Part shown: piece by piece, positions 4,130-9,610 of the stretch
Layout of the letters: each line of letters begins with the position of its first letter
How positions within the stretch are numbered: the first letter of the stretch is position 1
Virus genome (UHGV): UHGV-1789045
Length of the DNA: 12,500 bases
Source of the DNA: a virus
Reading direction: 5' to 3' (one strand)
Position numbers and translations under genes: made by a program
Notes under the pieces: generated by a model
The model's input: only the letters and a program-made list of their open reading frames with translations
The model's database searches: none
What the model was told of the DNA's origin: nothing

Positions 4130-4429
4130 TCAAATAAGTGGTTTGCTGCCTAATTTCATTTTCTGGCGACCAACACAAGTCACACCCATTTCACTGCGTG
4201 GCTTGCGGTAGTAAATACGGTTCTGTTTACGCTCGACTTCTTCTGCCTTCTTGCAGCGAAGGCTTCCGAGTGATGCTGCTTTATCTGCTCTGACGCAACC
4301 AGAGAGCTTTAGCGCAATTTTTCGCGCCAGTCGCTGCTCTTGCATTGCCTGTTCACGTTGAGCCTGTCTGCGTGCTCTGCGGCGATTTCTGGCGTTATCG
4401 TCAGCCAGATATGTAATGACTACTGTCAT
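4130..4429 (-). CDS. N: N-type transcription antitermination protein
   Basis: 99-aa ORF with GGAGG RBS. N-terminal arginine-rich motif DNARNRRRARRQAQREQ, as in lambda N and P22 gp24, the boxB RNA-binding peptide. Located downstream of pL and nutL. Confidence 0.8.
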   Translation of the reverse strand: MTVVITYLADDNARNRRRARRQAQREQAMQEQRLARKIALKLSGCVRADKAASLGSLRCKKAEEVERKQNRIYYRKPRSEMGVTCVGRQKMKLGSKPLI

Positions 4430-4535
4430 GTTGACCTCCGATGATTGACTTTGGCGGTGACGCGCCGGGTGCTTATCTTCCGATTGCCGTCGTGCAGCTG
4501 CACTTCACGTCACCCCAAAGCCAACTACTCTTTGG

Positions 4536-4579
4536 TTCCCGCATTTCGGCGGGACAATCCCATCAATGTTAAAGAGCCT
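4536..4579 (-). promoter_or_regulatory. nutL (boxA + boxB) N-utilisation site
   Basis: On the minus strand, boxA GGCTCTTTAACA (plus coordinates 4568-4579), then boxB hairpin CCCGCCGAAATGCGGG (4538-4553). The boxB 16-mer is identical to the one in nutR at 6235-6250. Confidence 0.75.
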
Positions 4580-4623
4580 GCCAATCTTTTCCGTTTGGCT
4601 TCCAGCTTCCTGCTGATGGCTAA

Positions 4624-4652
4624 AGAATACTGTAGGTATTTTATTGTGTAAA
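4624..4652 (-). promoter_or_regulatory. pL early-left promoter (candidate)
   Basis: Minus-strand -35 TTTACA (4652-4647), 17-bp spacer, -10 TATTCT (4629-4624). Both hexamers overlap operators OL1/OL2. Same -10 hexamer as the candidate pR. Confidence 0.5.
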
Positions 4653-4710
4653 TACCCAAGGTATTTATTTTTGGTGAAATAATGATAAGCAAATGAATAC
4701 AAAGGATATT
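4626..4710. promoter_or_regulatory. OL operator set: three 15-bp AATAC-N5-GTATT repressor-binding sites
   Basis: AATACtgtagGTATT (4626-4640), AATACccaagGTATT (4651-4665), and the degenerate AATACaaaggATATT (4696-4710). Same dyad as the OR sites at 5936-5975. Confidence 0.6.
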
Positions 4711-4796
4711 TATTTTTTCGGTGTCTGCTTGTTCAGTGCTTTTTATGCGGGATATGTGAAGTGGATCCCGATAGCTATTGCTGCCGGGATTATAGG

Positions 4797-5165
4797 TTAG
4801 TCAGCGAAGGTTAAGACGAGAATTACCTTAATGATGTCTGCTACAACAGACACGGCCATAGATAAACCAAAGACGATCCAAGCCACAGTGATGTCTTCAC
4901 TACCATCGTATAGAGTTCCGTAATCACTGGTGTAAGGCGTAAATGTCGCGCCTTGATACAATAGGTATAAGCTTGATCCATAGAGGATAAATGCAGATAT
5001 CCCTTGTATTGCTATGATCACCAGAATCATGAAACGAGCTGATCTATGCGCCCAAGCCTGGCTTATTTTTTCTGATAGAGATTTCGCAATAAAAGCATGC
5101 GCTAAGCCGTAAATTGTCGAGATTGCCAACATCCCAAAAAAGCTTGCTATAGCGGTTCCAACCAT
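4797..5165 (-). CDS. small polytopic membrane protein (3 predicted TM helices), co-transcribed with cI; candidate superinfection-exclusion / abortive-infection protein
   Basis: 122-aa ORF starting 18 nt after the cI stop on the same strand. Three hydrophobic stretches (approx. residues 4-26, 46-70, 95-119). Sits where lambda has rexAB. Confidence 0.7.
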   Translation of the reverse strand: MVGTAIASFFGMLAISTIYGLAHAFIAKSLSEKISQAWAHRSARFMILVIIAIQGISAFILYGSSLYLLYQGATFTPYTSDYGTLYDGSEDITVAWIVFGLSMAVSVVADIIKVILVLTFAD

Positions 5166-5183
5166 AAGCGCCCCCTTGCGTGA

Positions 5184-5900
5184 TCAAACCAGTCTGAGTT
5201 TTGTCTCAATTGCAACGCCTATAATCTTGCAGTTTCCATTGATTGGCACGAGAGGCCATGCAGGATTAAGTCCCTTGAGGTATTTATTTCCGCCGTCGAT
5301 TATCAGCTTCTTGAATGTTGCTTCGTTAGAGTCAGAAAGTTTTGCTATGACCAAGCTGCCGTTGATCGCCTCCCTTCCGGTATCGAAAAGAACGAATGTT
5401 CCCTCTGGAATGCTTAACCCAACCGGTGCCGTCATTGAATCACCTTCCACTTTAAGCCAGAACGCATTACCTTGAATATGCGCGTCAGACTCAAGCCAAA
5501 CATCTATGTCTTTAATGGTGTATGGTTCGCATGCTTCACACCACGAGCCAGCCTGGATACTGCTTAACACCGGATACCTCTTTCCTGCTCTGTATTCCCC
5601 TGCATACCTTACGTTGGCATCGCTCTTAAGGCTTTCTGCCTGTTCTGCAACCTTGGCAGCAATTGACTGGCTAAAATCAGCAATTGAGACTTGCAACAAT
5701 CGTGCAAAACCAGATGCGACCTCAACGTTTAGCGCGTTTCTGCCATTAAGATAATGCCCTACCGCTCCTTGGGTGATACCCAGTTCATCAGCGATTGAGT
5801 ATTGGGTTATTCCCAATTCTTTCTTTTTTGACTCATACAAAGCCTTAAGCCGCTTAGCGTCTTCGAGCTGTTCTGTCGTCAGTGATTTTTTATTTTCCAT
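5184..5900 (-). CDS. cI: CI-type prophage repressor (lambda-cI-like HTH N-domain + LexA/S24 autocleavage C-domain)
   Basis: 238 aa. N-terminus KKSLTTEQLEDAKRLKALYESKKKELGITQYSIADELGITQGAVGHYLNGRNALN closely parallels lambda CI. C-domain FWLKVEGDSMTAPVGLSIPEGTFVLFD...ATFKKLIIDGGNKYLKGLNPAWP...NGNCKIIGVAIETKL matches the P22 C2 / lambda CI S24 peptidase fold, with Ser in GDSM and Lys in FKKL. Confidence 0.95.
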   Translation of the reverse strand: MENKKSLTTEQLEDAKRLKALYESKKKELGITQYSIADELGITQGAVGHYLNGRNALNVEVASGFARLLQVSIADFSQSIAAKVAEQAESLKSDANVRYAGEYRAGKRYPVLSSIQAGSWCEACEPYTIKDIDVWLESDAHIQGNAFWLKVEGDSMTAPVGLSIPEGTFVLFDTGREAINGSLVIAKLSDSNEATFKKLIIDGGNKYLKGLNPAWPLVPINGNCKIIGVAIETKLRLV

Positions 5901-5936
5901 AGCTTAATTCTAATAGCTAAGGTACTTAAACTAAAA
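5901..5936 (-). promoter_or_regulatory. pRM-like maintenance promoter for cI (candidate, near-leaderless)
   Basis: Minus-strand -10 TAGAAT (plus 5912-5907) about 6 nt upstream of the cI ATG at 5900; weak -35. Overlaps OR3 and abuts OR2, the same architecture as lambda pRM. Confidence 0.35.
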
Positions 5937-5975
5937 ATACCCTGAGTATTGATTGCCTTGAATACCTGTAGTATT
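5912..5975. promoter_or_regulatory. OR operator set: OR3 (degenerate), OR2, OR1
   Basis: AATAGctaagGTACT (5912-5926, degenerate), AATACcctgaGTATT (5936-5950), AATACctgtaGTATT (5961-5975). Centres spaced 24-25 bp. Confidence 0.65.
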
Positions 5976-5977
5976 CT
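5949..5977 (+). promoter_or_regulatory. pR early-right promoter (candidate)
   Basis: -35 TTGATT (5949-5954), 17-bp spacer, -10 TATTCT (5972-5977) overlapping OR1. The cro RBS GGAGA lies about 20 nt downstream. Confidence 0.5.
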
Positions 5978-6006
5978 TTGTTCATGGTTAATAACGGAGA
6001 GTGCAT

Positions 6007-6201
6007 ATGATTCGAATGACACTTGCCGATTACGCCAAAATCCATGGACAGGCTAAAGCAGCCAGTGACTTTGGTGTAATCCAGTGCGCTATCAGCAAGG
6101 CCATTCTGGCAGGCCGTAACATTATGGTTACGGTAAAGCCTGATGGCAGTGTGATTGGAGAGGAAGTTCGTCCTTTCCCAAGCAACAAGAAAAACAAATA
6201 G
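6007..6201 (+). CDS. cro: Cro repressor (lambda-Cro-like)
   Basis: The track ORF starts at GTG 6001. ATG 6007 has GGAGA 6 nt upstream and gives [64 protein letters not shown], collinear with lambda Cro ([66 protein letters not shown]). Confidence 0.85.
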
Positions 6202-6207
6202 TAACAC

Positions 6208-6252
6208 CGCTCTTTAACAGTCATGGTCCTCATTCCCGCCGAAATGCGGGAA
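6208..6252 (+). promoter_or_regulatory. nutR (boxA + boxB) N-utilisation site
   Basis: boxA CGCTCTTTAACA (6208-6219), matching the lambda/rrn boxA consensus. boxB hairpin TTCCCGCCGAAATGCGGGAA (6233-6252). Lies between cro and cII as in lambda. Confidence 0.8.
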
Positions 6253-6309
6253 TACAACGCGCATAAGTTGATGCGCATAACTTCTTATTTGTTAAGGAAA
6301 TACTTACAT

Positions 6310-6622: not shown

Positions 6623-6769
6623 ATGACAAAACAACTCAGTCCTTACCAGGACAAAATTCACAAACACATACTACGTGATCGCTTCCTGTCCAGCTTCAAG
6701 CAGCCTGGTCGATTCCGGGCTGAGTTGGAAAAAGTGAAGCTGATGCAGAAGGAGAAAGGTCATGAGTAA
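6623..6769 (+). CDS. small hypothetical protein, 48 aa, between cII and O
   Basis: ATG 6623 with RBS AGGAGT 5 nt upstream. Translation [48 protein letters not shown]. Its 3' end overlaps the O start (6762) by 8 nt. Below the ORF-track size cutoff. Confidence 0.4.
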
Positions 6770-7622
6770 TCTTGCAACCGTAACACATTTAAGGCCTTCA
6801 CAACGGCCTGTGGAGCGTCGTGTGGCAGAAGTTGAAGATGGTTATACCCGTCTTGCAAATGCCCTGTATGAAGAGCTTATCGGCGCAGATTTAACGAAAA
6901 ATCAGAGCAAGGTTGCCCACGCCATATGCCGTAAAACATACGGCTACGGTAAAAAGATGGATCGCATCTCTGATAGTCAGTTAGCTCAAATTACCAGGCT
7001 GCCAAGACAGAAGGTAAACAAGGCCAAGAATGAGCTTATCGCGATGAAGGTTATCCTTCGCGAAGGCCAGCAAATCGGTCCTAACAAGAACATCGAAGAA
7101 TGGCAAATCGAAGGGTGTCACTACTCTGGTGATAATGTCACTACATTGGTGACAAAAAGTGTCACCAACACGGTGACAGCGCTGTCACCAAAACAGGGAC
7201 ACACAAAAGAAACTATTACAAAAGAAAAAAGAAATAATAAAAACACTATGTCCGAAAGTGTTCGGACGGAGTGTGAAAAATCACCTGACCGTCACGAAGA
7301 AATCGACAAGGCATTCGAGGAAATATTCTGGTGTGCAGGCATGCGGAAAGCCGGGAAGAAAAACGCAGCTTCGGCATTCAGAACACAGTTCAGGGAATGG
7401 CGTAAAACTACCAGGGGTACGGCAAGCGAGTTTGCCACGATGCTGGCAGAAGACATCGCATGCAGGAATGGTAAGCAGTTCGGATTCGACAGGTTGTTAC
7501 CATCGAGCTACCTGAACGGTCAACGCTGGAACGACGAGAAGCCAGAAACTATTCAACCACAATCCAAACCATCATCCGCAATCACCGTATCGAAAACTGG
7601 CTACGTGTTTTTCGACAGGTGA
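6762..7622 (+). CDS. O: replication initiator protein O (lambda-O-like N-domain, divergent C-domain)
   Basis: 286 aa. The N-terminal segment [75 protein letters not shown]...GPNKNIEEW parallels lambda O. The iteron origin is embedded in the linker-coding region. The C-terminal domain is not lambda-like. Confidence 0.9.
7113..7250. repeat. origin of replication: four GTCAC-type iterons followed by an A-rich tract, inside the O gene
   Basis: Iterons with internal dyads: ggTGTCACtactctgGTGAta, aTGTCACtacattgGTGACA, aGTGTCACcaacacgGTGACAg, gcTGTCACcaaaacagGGACAc (about 7113-7202). They are followed by aaaagaaactattacaaaagaaaaaagaaataataaaaac (about 7205-7245). This is the layout of lambda ori. 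Confidence 0.65.
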
Positions 7623-7625
7623 ACC

Positions 7626-7733
7626 ATGAAATCAAAAATCAAATCGCTACTGGTCGCTGGTTATAACCACGGCTGGTTAAGTATTTCGTTTGTCGATTTC
7701 TGGTTTAAAAATCTCAATCTGAGGGAATCATGA
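7626..7733 (+). CDS. small hypothetical protein, 35 aa, between O and the helicase gene
   Basis: ATG 7626, 3 nt after the O stop. Translation MKSKIKSLLVAGYNHGWLSISFVDFWFKNLNLRES. Its stop overlaps the helicase ATG. May be a real coupling ORF or just the helicase leader. Confidence 0.3.
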   Translation: MKSKIKSLLVAGYNHGWLSISFVDFWFKNLNLRES

Positions 7734-9610
7734 CGCCAAGTGAACTCAGCGACCTGCTTTGGTCGCAGGTTGACAGGGTGGCTCCGCACCTGTTGCCAAA
7801 CGGCAAGAAAGAGGGGCATGAGTGGGTTGCCGGTAACGTTAACGGTGACAAGGGAAACAGCCTTAAGGTCAACCTTAGCGGCAAGAAAAAATGGGCTGAT
7901 TTCGCTGAGGGAGACGGCGGTGACATGCTTGATTTGTGGATGTCATGTCGTGGAATTAATCTGCATCAGGCTATGCAGGAAGCGAAAGCATTTCTCGGTA
8001 TCAAGGATGACGATCACCATTTCGATGCCAAACGTGAGAAGAAATTCTCCAGACCTGATCGCAAGAAAATCGCCCGCTACGTTACCAGAACAGAATCCCA
8101 TCTTGAGTACCTGCAATCGCGTGGCATATCGCCAGAAATCGTAAAGCGCTACGAGGTTGTCAGCGGCAAGGTGTGGAATGGAGAGCGGGAACTGGATGCT
8201 CTGGTGATTCCGTACAAACGCGATGGTGAGTTGTTGCAGGTCAAGCGAATCAGCACTGAGCGCCCGGACGGGAAGAAAGTCATTATGGCAGAAGGTGATT
8301 GCGAACCTTGTCTGTTCGGATGGCAGGCTCTGGACGCTGGCGTGAGGGCGGTTGTACTTTGCGAAGGCGAAATTGATTGTATGAGCTATGCGCAATACGG
8401 CATCTCGGCGTTATCCGTGCCGTTTGGTGGAGGGAAAGGCGCTAAGCAACAGTGGATTGAGTTTGAGTATCACAACCTCGACAGGTTTGAGGAAATATTC
8501 ATCTCGATGGACGTTGATGATGTTGGTCGTGAAGCCGCAAGGGAAATCGCAAGCCGACTCGGTGAACATCGTTGCCGTCTTGTTACTCTGCCGTACAAAG
8601 ACATCAACGAATGCCTGATGAACGGTGTTACCGAGGATGAAATCTGGCAGTACATCGGCACGGCATCCTACTTCGATCCTGAAGAACTCTACAGTGCGCG
8701 AGAGTTTTACCAGGACACTATCAACGCTTTCTACGGCAAGCAGCAGTATCTGTTTAATCCACCGTGGGAATCTCTGGCAGATAAATTCCAGTTCCGTGAG
8801 GCAGAGTTGACGCTGGTCAATGGTGTGAACGGTCACGGAAAAACGGAGGTTGTCGGGCATATGGCACTTGAGGCAATGCGTCAGGGTGTGAAGACGTGCA
8901 TCGCGTCACTTGAGCTGAAGCCAGGCATTCTCCTTAAGCGACTTACCCGTCAGGCAACGTGCTGCAAGATGCCGCCAGTGCTGGAAATTGACTCTGCATT
9001 TAAATTTTATGACGAAAGACTTTGGGTGTTTGGCCTGACCGGAACGGCGAAAGCCGACAGGCTGATCGAAATATTCGACTACGCTCGCCGCCGATACGGG
9101 ATCCAGTTATTCATCATCGACAGCCTGATGAAATGTGGCATAGGCGACGATGACTATAACGGGCAGAAGGCGTTTGTTGACTCGATTTGCGACTTCAAAA
9201 ACAAAACAAACTCCCACGTCATTCTCGTTACTCACTCGCGAAAAGGAGACAGCGAAGAAAAACCAACCGGGAAAATGGACGTAAAAGGCTCTGGAGCGAT
9301 AACAGACCTGACAGACAACCTTTTCATCATCTGGCGTAACAAGGCTCGCGAGAGAGCGTTACAGAGAGTTCAGAGTGGTGAAAAGATGTCAGAGAAGGAC
9401 GAACAGCTACTGGCATCTCCGGCATCTGTTTTGATGCTTGAAAAACAACGTAACGGCGAAGGTTGGGAAGGTGGTGTCCCGTTGTTCCTTGACGAGCAAT
9501 CGCACCAGTTCCTGCAACTTGAATCAGGATCGCCATATAGCTACATCGCCAATATGCCGAAATCGGAATATGACGAGGCGTGGCGACAGGAAAACGTGAC
9601 GGAGTATTAA
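7730..9610 (+). CDS. bifunctional Toprim primase / RecA-fold (DnaB- or gp4-like) replicative helicase
   Basis: 626 aa. Toprim motifs VVLCEGEIDCMS and ISMDVDDVGREAA. Walker A LVNGVNGHGKTE, Walker B QLFIIDSLMK, and ILVTHSRKG. Takes the place of lambda P downstream of O. Confidence 0.85.
   Translation: MTPSELSDLLWSQVDRVAPHLLPNGKKEGHEWVAGNVNGDKGNSLKVNLSGKKKWADFAEGDGGDMLDLWMSCRGINLHQAMQEAKAFLGIKDDDHHFDAKREKKFSRPDRKKIARYVTRTESHLEYLQSRGISPEIVKRYEVVSGKVWNGERELDALVIPYKRDGELLQVKRISTERPDGKKVIMAEGDCEPCLFGWQALDAGVRAVVLCEGEIDCMSYAQYGISALSVPFGGGKGAKQQWIEFEYHNLDRFEEIFISMDVDDVGREAAREIASRLGEHRCRLVTLPYKDINECLMNGVTEDEIWQYIGTASYFDPEELYSAREFYQDTINAFYGKQQYLFNPPWESLADKFQFREAELTLVNGVNGHGKTEVVGHMALEAMRQGVKTCIASLELKPGILLKRLTRQATCCKMPPVLEIDSAFKFYDERLWVFGLTGTAKADRLIEIFDYARRRYGIQLFIIDSLMKCGIGDDDYNGQKAFVDSICDFKNKTNSHVILVTHSRKGDSEEKPTGKMDVKGSGAITDLTDNLFIIWRNKARERALQRVQSGEKMSEKDEQLLASPASVLMLEKQRNGEGWEGGVPLFLDEQSHQFLQLESGSPYSYIANMPKSEYDEAWRQENVTEY

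Follow-up and report, generated by a model that had tools for sequence, protein, structure and literature searches.

Introduction

The closest described immunity regions are those of phages HK620 and mEpX2. The HK620 record (AF335538; Clark, Inwood, Cloutier and Dhillon, 2001, J Mol Biol 311:657) annotates OL1, OL2, OR1, OR2, OR3, pL, pR, nutL, nutR and hkaS; operators are not annotated in the mEpX2 record (JQ182726). The mEpX2 immunity group is reported to be separate from lambda: mEpX2 is described as heteroimmune to the remaining mEp phages tested as well as to lambda, HK022 and phi80, and triple lysogens of lambda, HK022 and mEpX2 have been built (PMC3442831). For DNA recognition by Cro, published rules pair Gln at H1 with A+2, Ala at H3 with A+5 and Lys at H6 with G-6 (PMC6649833). 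A literature search on the operators, repressor, immunity and Cro of HK620 returned no binding study, and neither footprints nor EMSA nor operator genetics were found for HK620-type immunity in the searchable literature, outside which the 2001 paper of Clark et al. and the papers of Hall et al. (2005, 2011) lie.

Here, we describe the immunity region of a viral genome (UHGV-1789045) from a stretch of 12,500 nucleotides, referred to as the window. Positions 4624-5976 are very probably, as judged from the sequence, the immunity-module core of a mosaic lambdoid E. coli prophage with the HK620/mEpX2 immunity type.

Materials and methods

Exact copies of AATAC-N5-GTATT were counted in the window and compared with 200 shuffles. 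For a motif-blind count, every 5-N(0-9)-5 inverted repeat was tallied. Positions 4400-6300 were scanned for lambda-type and 434-type operators. The comparative set consisted of five loci in two OL3 arrangements, the window and four relatives. A profile search of genome contigs with the Cro alignment gave two loci only (Yersinia and Serratia), so that the set is small. Residues were assigned to bases from one contrast (phage PA2) together with knowledge of the lambda complexes, and the regulatory mechanism was drawn by analogy with lambda. Feature coordinates are presented in Table 1.

Table 1. Features of the immunity region (window coordinates)
Feature	Coordinates	Strand	Description
nutL	4536..4577	-	boxB hairpin 4536-4554, boxA 4560-4577; nutL in HK620 record
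pL	4624..4652	-	-35 TTTACA (4647-4652), 17-bp spacer, -10 TATTCT (4624-4629); promoter scan 9/12
OL1 (predicted)	4625..4641	.	GAATACTGTAGGTATTT; exact dyad; identical 17-mer is OL1 in HK620; overlaps pL -10
OL2 (predicted)	4650..4666	.	AAATACCCAAGGTATTT; exact dyad; OL2 in HK620; 25 bp from OL1; overlaps pL -35
Database OL3 (HK620 record)	4672-4688	.	TGGTGAAATAATGATAA; 22 bp from OL2; dyad not matched
Candidate OL3	4695..4711	.	GAATACAAAGGATATTT; one mismatch; 45 bp from OL2; not the OL3 of the HK620 record
hkaS-like protein	4797..5165	-	ORF, 122 aa, hydrophobic; 3' of cI, position of lambda rexAB; hkaS in HK620 record
cI repressor	5184..5900	-	238 aa; Pfam HTH_3 and Peptidase_S24
Candidate pRM	5907..5935	-	-10 TAGAAT (5907-5912), 17-bp spacer, -35 TTTAGT (5930-5935)
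OR3 (predicted)	5911..5927	.	TAATAGCTAAGGTACTT; two mismatches, weakest match; OR3 in HK620 record; 24 bp from OR2
OR2 (predicted)	5935..5951	.	AAATACCCTGAGTATTG; exact dyad; OR2 in HK620 record; abuts pRM -35, overlaps pR -35
pR	5949..5977	+	-35 TTGATT (5949-5954), 17-bp spacer, -10 TATTCT (5972-5977); read from sequence
OR1 (predicted)	5960..5976	.	GAATACCTGTAGTATTC; exact dyad; OR1 in HK620 record; overlaps pR -10
Cro	6007..6201	+	64 aa; Pfam Cro PF09048, E 3.6e-26
nutR	6208..6252	+	boxA CGCTCTTTA from 6208, boxB hairpin 6234-6252; nutR in HK620 record

Repressor and Cro

The original prediction described cI and Cro as lambda-type proteins with recognition helices unlike those of lambda, and the alignments bear out both statements. 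The repressor is 43% identical to lambda cI over its full length (E 1e-65), and PDB entry 3BDN (E 3e-52) is its best match among solved structures. The N-terminal part is a lambda-repressor-like helix-turn-helix (HTH_3, E 8e-10; residues 3-90 against 1LMB, E 7e-23) with helix 3 formed by Q44-G45-A46-V47-G48-H49-Y50-L51-N52. The C-terminal part is a predicted self-cleavage domain (Peptidase_S24, E 5e-24), in which QAG 116-118, GDSM (S155) and FKKL (K197) are aligned to A111-G112, S149 and K192 of lambda cI. Cro shares 63% identity with its lambda counterpart (best PDB matches 1COP and 6CRO), covers model positions 1-59 of 59 in PF09048 with 91.3 bits (cut-off 32.7) and has the recognition helix Q26-C27-A28-I29-S30-K31. 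Cro is identical in HK620 and mEpX2, whereas cI is 100% identical to that of mEpX2 and differs from HK620 cI by one substitution (A66T).

The hkaS-like protein matches phrog_6534, a PHROG family without an assigned function; PADLOC gave no match and Pfam no significant match for this protein. The boxB of nutL is a 19-nt perfect inverted copy of the nutR boxB. No Rfam family reached threshold in the whole window.

Operator dyads

Four exact copies of AATAC-N5-GTATT were found in the window (4626-4640, 4651-4665, 5936-5950 and 5961-5975), all in the two control regions, with 0.00 expected from the shuffles. Two further copies are degenerate, one with one mismatch (4696-4710) and one with two (5912-5926). 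The six sites of the dyad originally proposed, three in OR and three in OL, are thus four perfect and two degenerate sites, the degenerate ones being OL3 and OR3. In the motif-blind count AATAC/N5 ranked first in the control regions, with four copies against one for the runner-up, and was absent from the remaining 12.2 kb of the window. All four exact sites of the 38.3 kb HK620 genome likewise lie within OL/OR, as do five of its six sites with at most one mismatch (1.0 expected by chance). The dyad is therefore concentrated at OL/OR in both the window and the HK620 genome rather than occurring at a similar frequency throughout.

The 17-bp operators of lambda, which the original prediction reported as missing from the operator regions, are indeed not seen there in the 4400-6300 scan: TATCAC-N5-GTGATA with up to three mismatches has no copy in the control regions. 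The sole match to a lambda-type or 434-type operator had three mismatches, lay inside hkaS and was rejected.

The predicted cI operator would be 17 bp long with the consensus R-A-A-T-A-C-C-N-N-N-G-G-T-A-T-T-Y. Centre-to-centre distances are 25 bp (OR1-OR2), 24 bp (OR2-OR3), 25 bp (OL1-OL2) and 45 bp (OL2-OL3), so that the OR spacing is lambda-like as predicted (25/24 against 24/23 in lambda). Among 60 half-sites, positions 2-5 (AATA) are kept in 56-60, C6 in 42 and C7 in 39, the near-invariance of positions 2-5 being partly circular since the sites of the relatives were chosen by dyad similarity. The homologous position of the sites and the motif-blind count partly lessen this circularity without removing it.

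The four relatives are Hafnia phage Pocitis76, Serratia phage OS31 and prophages of Yersinia massiliensis and Serratia bockelmannii. Their Cro proteins are 79-87% identical to the one described here and keep the helix QCAISKAI, and their cI helix reads G(I/V)(T/S)QGAVGHYLN. All have 3+3 dyads with an OR spacing of 23-24/25, in intergenic DNA diverged to a mean column identity of 74-79%. At OR3, the weakest site, a dyad is found at the homologous place in four of four relatives.

Promoters and proposed regulation

The dyads lie on the candidate pR, pL and pRM hexamers as they do in lambda (promoter scan and lambda record), in agreement with the original prediction. pL falls within the annotated HK620 pL, and pR is inside the annotated HK620 pR with 8/12 matches, under the promoter-scan threshold. 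The HK620 record has no pRM annotation and the pRM given here is a candidate read from the sequence. The cI ATG is 10 bp from the edge of OR3, the same distance as in the lambda record, which by analogy suggests a leaderless cI mRNA.

In the mechanism proposed by analogy, cI would occlude pR and pL by binding as pairs of dimers, spaced 25 bp, to OR1/OR2 and OL1/OL2. cI on OR2 would presumably activate the abutting pRM, and the weak OR3 over the pRM -10 could provide negative autoregulation. Cro on the same sites would turn off pRM. Given the 24-25 bp spacing and the conservation of the C-terminal domain, we infer cooperative pairwise binding and OL-OR looping. The S24 domain (A117-G118, S155, K197) suggests that cI would be cleavable with activated RecA, and hence that the prophage should be SOS-inducible.

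The assignment of the predicted operators to cI and Cro follows sequence logic, and the dyads could instead be a repeated promoter-related sequence or sites of another protein. Several half-sites do coincide with -10/-35 hexamers (GTATTC/TATTCT), and pL and pR are 45-nt mirror copies, so that part of the repetition could reflect promoter duplication. The dyad is nevertheless kept at OR3, the left half of OR2 and OL3, which fall outside hexamers of the same promoter type; its two-fold symmetry, 17-bp size, 3+3 layout and 24-25 bp spacing match lambda-family operators; and it accompanies these recognition helices in four genera. Its half-site also obeys the published Cro helix-to-base rules. A non-operator origin of the dyads is considered highly improbable.

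Recognition of the half-site

Compared with the lambda half-site TATCACC, the half-site RAATACC differs at positions 1, 3 and 4 and keeps A2, A5, C6 and C7. Position 1 is a purine here and T in lambda. In the lambda record the half-site reads TATCACCG, and position 4 is C in 12/12. The shift in specificity would thus lie mainly at positions 3 and 4 (T-C in lambda, A-T here). Cro carries Gln, Ala and Lys at H1, H3 and H6, and A2, A5 and C6 are present in the half-site, as the published rules require. The Gln that would read A2 and the predicted readers of base pair 6 (Cro Lys H6 and cI Asn55) are kept, in line with the conserved A2 and C6.

In lambda, the Ser that follows the helix-3 Gln reads the G of base pair 4. 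This Ser is replaced in both proteins, by Gly in cI (S45 to G) and by Cys in Cro (S28 to C). The position following the helix-3 Gln, which holds Ser in the lambda and PA2 types and, here, Cys in Cro and Gly in cI, may covary with base pair 4 (C versus T). If true, this would be a fourth pairing in the three-position Cro code, parallel in repressor and Cro.

The OL region and OL3

The 4695-4711 site shares a 22-nt unit with OL2, and a dyad is found at the same +45 position in OS31 and in the S. bockelmannii prophage, where the opposite half-site is the degenerate one. In Pocitis76 and Y. massiliensis the third OL dyad lies 29 bp from OL2. The distance is therefore not conserved, being 45 bp (window and the two Serratia elements) or 29 bp, with 20 bp in lambda. 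The original choice of 4695-4711 is better supported by the Serratia relatives than the database site is; the Hafnia and Yersinia elements place the third dyad elsewhere.

The true OL3 could still be the 4672-4688 site of the HK620 record, in which case the originally proposed third OL site would be wrong. Its 22-bp spacing is near the 20 bp between OL2 and OL3 in lambda, and the third dyad of Pocitis76 partly aligns with this stretch. The sequence TGGTGAAATAATGATAA is, on the other hand, a poor dyad match that a scan with up to two mismatches did not report, the homologous OS31 stretch also has no dyad, and HK620 and the window differ by two bases within 4672-4688 while all dyad sites are identical. 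We regard this assignment as improbable, and 4695-4711 looks like the better OL3 call on sequence grounds.

OL might also comprise two functional operators only, the 4695-4711 dyad being a non-functional duplicate of OL2 or part of a signal for the end of the cI-hkaS transcript (tIMM). Its distance of 45 bp from OL2 contrasts with the 20 bp of lambda, Pocitis76 lacks a dyad at the corresponding location and has its third one 29 bp from OL2, the HK620 record puts tIMM in this stretch, and a T-rich tail (TATTTATTTTT) is common to all three aligned phages. The terminator annotated as tIMM (about 4685-4715) was rejected as a candidate: neither strand folds more stably than shuffled sequence (-4.5 kcal/mol, z -0.68), which also holds for two relatives, and the terminator scan reported no terminator there; it was therefore left out of the feature. 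Both results count against a transcript-end signal. A site with at most one mismatch occurs about once per 38 kb, which gives a chance of about 0.002 for one within 60 bp of OL2. A third dyad is near OL2 in five of five loci, and the +45 dyads of OS31 and S. bockelmannii, with the other half-site intact, fit selection for the dyad over ancestry alone. A two-operator OL is accordingly the less favoured reading, though the more serious of the two alternatives considered for OL3.

With 4695-4711 as OL3, the real site would sit 45 bp from OL2 on top of the annotated tIMM, and the position of OL3 may be evolutionarily labile. That the HK620 record misplaces OL3 and, jointly, that the residue after the helix-3 Gln covaries with base pair 4 is a tentative proposal, to which we give somewhat less than an even chance. 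The OL3 correction, if true, would make a reference annotation more accurate, one that is copied into other records.

Distribution of the module

The DNA of positions 4400-6300 (1.9 kb) is 98.9-99.3% identical to HK620, mEpX2, HK630, HK140, HF4s, phi296/367 and two Stx2c phages. The module is present in 146 of 5,426 complete E. coli genomes (about 2.7%). Strains of O111:H8 and O145:H28 are among the E. coli carrying it as a prophage. Stx2c-converting phages in the phage collection also carry it.

Comparison with known systems

The locus has the same cI (at most one residue different), Cro and operators (six identical 17-mers) as the HK620/mEpX2 group. In HK620 the DNA of 4400-6300 is 98.9% identical, the annotated elements lie at the same positions and five of the six predicted sites are annotated at the same coordinates, OL3 being the one that differs. 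Outside the core the two differ: N has 99 residues here and 90 in HK620, and an O-like protein with a toprim primase-helicase is found here in place of HK620 O/P. In mEpX2, cI, Cro, hkaS and the six operator 17-mers are 100% identical. The module moves from one phage type to another, being carried by a siphovirus (mEpX2, Hendrixvirinae) as well as by a P22-like podovirus (HK620). The distinct and coherent immunity group of the original prediction is supported by the identity with mEpX2, which is reported to belong to a group separate from lambda (PMC3442831), but it had already been described; the evidence supports a lambda-architecture switch with its own specificity that is already known and not new. 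The significance is small and mostly bookkeeping. Typing as HK620/mEpX2 predicts which superinfecting phages a lysogen will repress. As a close natural relative of lambda cI/Cro with shifted specificity, the pair could be used as an orthogonal repressor/operator set or to test rules of protein-DNA recognition.

The imm-lambda group (lambda, HK97, mEp234, HK106 and HK244) is characterized by TATCACCGC operators with QSGVGALFN in cI and QSAINK in Cro, a combination that the locus does not carry. HK97, whose Cro is 65% identical, was rejected as a relative of the same specificity, having lambda's own helices and operators. In Stx2a phages such as PA2 and TL-2011c, Cro is 61% identical and has the helix QSAISK, with H2 as the single difference from QCAISK; PA2 cI reads TQSAV, with the Ser kept, against TQGAV here. 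The PA2 OR half-sites are TATCAC/AACAC-like with C at position 4, so that the specificity differs from that of the present locus.

The tripartite OR/OL architecture is lambda-like, with an atypical OL3 position (45 bp). As in lambda, the predicted operators are 17 bp long with a central base pair, lie three on each side and overlap pR, pL and pRM. The spacing is 24, 23 (OR) and 24, 20 bp (OL) in lambda and 25, 24 and 25, 45 bp here, OL and OR are 1.3 kb apart compared with 2.4 kb in lambda, and one small membrane protein takes the place of lambda rexAB.

Repressor and Cro proteins

Both regulators were confirmed to be of the lambda type. The cI product contains HTH_3 and Peptidase_S24 domains (Pfam) and aligns along its entire length with lambda cI at 43% identity (E 1e-65), the closest solved structure being that of intact lambda repressor (3BDN); A117-G118 aligns with the cleavage site of lambda, S155 and K197 with its catalytic residues. 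Cro aligned with the full length of the Pfam family Cro (PF09048; 91 bits against a cut-off of 32.7), shares 63% identity with its lambda counterpart and matched the lambda Cro structures. As quoted in the original prediction, the recognition helices of both proteins are unlike those of lambda: Q44-G45-A46-V47-G48-H49-Y50-L51-N52 in cI against Q-S-G-V-G-A-L-F-N, and Q26-C27-A28-I29-S30-K31 in Cro against Q-S-A-I-N-K.

Operators and promoters

Six AATAC-N5-GTATT dyads had been proposed. Four are exact, two in OL and two in OR; the other two, recovered by a mismatch-tolerant scan, are degenerate. The exact motif had no match in any of 200 shuffles, and scattered matches with two mismatches were about as frequent as chance predicts (13 against 5.1 expected in the window scan). 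When every 5-N(0-9)-5 inverted repeat was counted with no motif assumed, AATAC/N5 ranked first in the two control regions (four copies, next best one) and was absent from the other 12.2 kb of the window. A repeat search independently found the three OL copies, 25 and 45 bp apart, and showed that OL1-OL2 and OR2-OR1 mirror each other over 45 nt. All four exact sites of the 38.3-kb HK620 genome fall in OL/OR, so the genome-wide spread that had been named as a refuting outcome is not seen; with up to one mismatch six sites were found there, five in OL/OR and one in hkaP (about 1.0 expected by chance).

The cI-cro control region is 106 bp long, and the second (4620-4715) lies to the left of hkaS, a small hydrophobic ORF. 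Taken as 17-bp sites, the operators are spaced centre to centre by 25 bp (OR1-OR2), 24 bp (OR2-OR3), 25 bp (OL1-OL2) and 45 bp (OL2-OL3), against 24/23 at OR and 24/20 at OL in the lambda record. The OR spacing is thus lambda-like, as proposed, and the predicted overlap with promoter hexamers was found at pR and pL, the pRM -35 adjoining OR2. The gap from OR3 to the cI ATG is 10 bp in the window and in the lambda record. Since promoters and operators are laid out as in lambda, the wiring of its switch can be transferred by inference. By analogy, repression would be cooperative at sites 1 and 2, OR2 would serve in activation of pRM and OR3 in autorepression, and Cro would act on the same sites as cI.

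Features of the immunity region and its neighbours
Feature	Coordinates	Direction	Sequence or product	Remark
cI	5184-5900	leftward	238 aa
cro	6007-6201	rightward	64 aa
hkaS	4797-5165	minus	122 aa	directly downstream of cI
pRM -10 (candidate)	5907-5912	leftward	TAGAAT	good match; placed as expected for leaderless cI mRNA
pRM -35 (candidate)	5930-5935		TTTAGT	adjoins OR2
pR	5949-5977		TTGATT-17-TATTCT	-35 overlaps OR2, -10 overlaps OR1
pL	4652-4624	minus	TTTACA-17-TATTCT	overlaps OL2 and OL1
Exact dyad	4626-4640			OL side
Exact dyad	4651-4665			OL side
Exact dyad	5936-5950			OR side
Exact dyad	5961-5975			OR side
Degenerate dyad	4696-4710			one mismatch
Degenerate dyad	5912-5926			two mismatches
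nutL	4536-4577
nutR	6208-6252
Replication module	6762-9610

Diverged relatives and half-site consensus

Two phages, Pocitis76 of Hafnia (Cro 86% identical) and OS31 of Serratia (81%), were picked up by tblastn with Cro as query, and two prophages, in Yersinia massiliensis (87%) and in Serratia bockelmannii (79%), by scanning species-representative genomes. All four keep the helices QCAISKAI (Cro) and G(I/V)(T/S)QGAVGHYLN (cI), with three dyads between cI and cro, spaced 23-24 and 25, and three at the leftward promoter, in intergenic DNA that has diverged (mean column identity 79% at OR, 74% at OL). From 60 half-sites (30 sites, 25 distinct 17-mers) the consensus RAATACC-N3-GGTATTY was derived, with a purine at position 1 (46/60), A at 2 (60/60), A at 3 (56/60), T at 4 (60/60), A at 5 (58/60), C at 6 (42/60) and C at 7 (39/60). 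This invariance is partly built in, because resemblance to the dyad was how the sites were picked out; the homologous positions and the motif-blind count lessen the circularity without removing it.

OL and OR are about 2.8 kb apart in the Y. massiliensis prophage (locus L005, 100-170 and 2908-2970), compared with 1.3 kb here, so that longer and different cargo separates cI from OL in the Yersinia element; what is carried at this position seems to vary. In Pocitis76 (locus L003, 895-974) a tRNA-Gly is annotated between N and OL, roughly at the place of nutL in the window.

Possible basis of the different specificity

The lambda record gives the half-site consensus TATCACCG, with A2 and C4 invariant. 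A2, A5, C6 and C7 are common to both systems; position 1 changes from T to a purine, position 3 from T to A and position 4 from C to T. Published correlations for Cro pair Gln at H1 with A+2, Ala at H3 with A+5 and Lys at H6 with G-6 (PMC6649833). The window pair follows these rules, with Q, A and K at H1, H3 and H6 of Cro and A2, A5 and C6 in the half-site. The same rules leave the difference between lambda and the window unexplained. In the established structures of the lambda complexes (repressor-OL1 and Cro-consensus operator) the Gln-Ser at the start of helix 3, in repressor and Cro alike, touches A2 and, at base pair 4, the G. In the window this Ser has become Gly (cI) or Cys (Cro), and base pair 4 is T:A. 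The Stx2a phage PA2 has the Cro helix QSAISK, differing from QCAISK solely at the residue after Gln; its cI retains Q-S, and its OR half-sites are of the TATCAC/AACAC type. As a single comparison this is only suggestive, hinting at one more helix-to-base correlation, between the residue after the helix-3 Gln and base pair 4.

Position of OL3

The OL3 of the HK620 record corresponds to window 4672-4688 (TGGTGAAATAATGATAA), which does not match the dyad and is one of the few spots where window and HK620 differ. The originally predicted OL3, 4695-4711, has one mismatch and has a 22-nt unit in common with OL2, T-rich tail included (repeat search). OS31 and S. bockelmannii carry a dyad at the same +45 position with the opposite half-site degenerate (AATCT...GGTATT against AATAC...GATATT), whereas in Pocitis76 and Y. 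massiliensis the third dyad lies 29 bp from OL2. The 45 bp spacing is unlike the 20 bp of lambda. Judged by sequence, 4695-4711 is fairly likely to be the better OL3 candidate of the two. The annotated HK620 terminator tIMM (window 4685-4715) overlaps this third dyad; neither strand there forms a stable hairpin (z -0.68 and +0.88 against shuffled sequence), and a terminator scan gave no match. The T-run taken as the tIMM tail also follows OL2, inside the 22-nt unit. The reference record probably misplaces both OL3 and tIMM.

Neighbouring genes

The hydrophobic hkaS protein, encoded in the rexAB slot of lambda, is 100% identical in mEpX2 and belongs to PHROG 6534 (unknown function); PADLOC gave no match and Pfam no significant one. 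Its expression in the lysogen is probably driven by pRM, and it is a candidate for an exclusion or membrane function of the prophage. Between nutL and nutR the boxB hairpin matches perfectly over 19 nt (TCCCGCCGAAATGCGGGAA), and an 18-nt copy includes boxA. With 99 aa, N is longer than its HK620 counterpart (90 aa), which places the boundary of the N/nut module just left of 4400. The end of the record of the jumbo Aeromonas phage AP1 (MT713136.1, 254 kb; 253426-253659) holds 234 bp 98.7% identical to window 6067-6300, from the cro 3' end through nutR; this has the appearance of foreign E. coli lambdoid DNA at the end of a contig and may be an artefact of assembly.

Comparison with known lambdoid phages

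The whole window is a mosaic (best coverage by any phage or genome about 80%). Its replication module encodes an O-like initiator (286 aa) and a 626-aa toprim primase-helicase, whereas HK620 has O and a DnaB-type P; the immunity module thus has different replication partners in different phages, as in classic lambdoid mosaicism. Over its full length, 4400-6300 is 98.9-99.3% identical to HK620, mEpX2, HK630, HK140, HF4s, HZ41, phi296, phi367 and two Stx2c-converting phages, and the module was found in 146 of 5,426 complete E. coli genomes, each at least 98.6% identical. The HK620 record (AF335538; Clark et al. 2001, as cited in PMC2629481) annotates pL, pR, OL1-3, OR1-3, nutL, nutR, tIMM, hkaS, cI and cro; the dyad-defined 17-mers coincide exactly with its starts of OL1, OL2, OR3, OR2 and OR1, the two Cro proteins are the same and the two cI proteins are one residue apart. 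With mEpX2 the window agrees fully in cI, Cro, hkaS and all six 17-mers. The proposed distinct specificity has experimental support, since mEpX2 is reported to differ in immunity group from lambda and eight other lambdoid phages, and triple lambda/HK022/mEpX2 lysogens were built (PMC3442831). The feature is real, its reading was right, and the region is already described, by the 2001 HK620 annotation and the experimentally distinct mEpX2 group. The sole additions to these known systems are the probable OL3/tIMM misplacement in the HK620 record, the spread of this specificity to elements of Hafnia, Serratia and Yersinia, and the helix-to-base hint.
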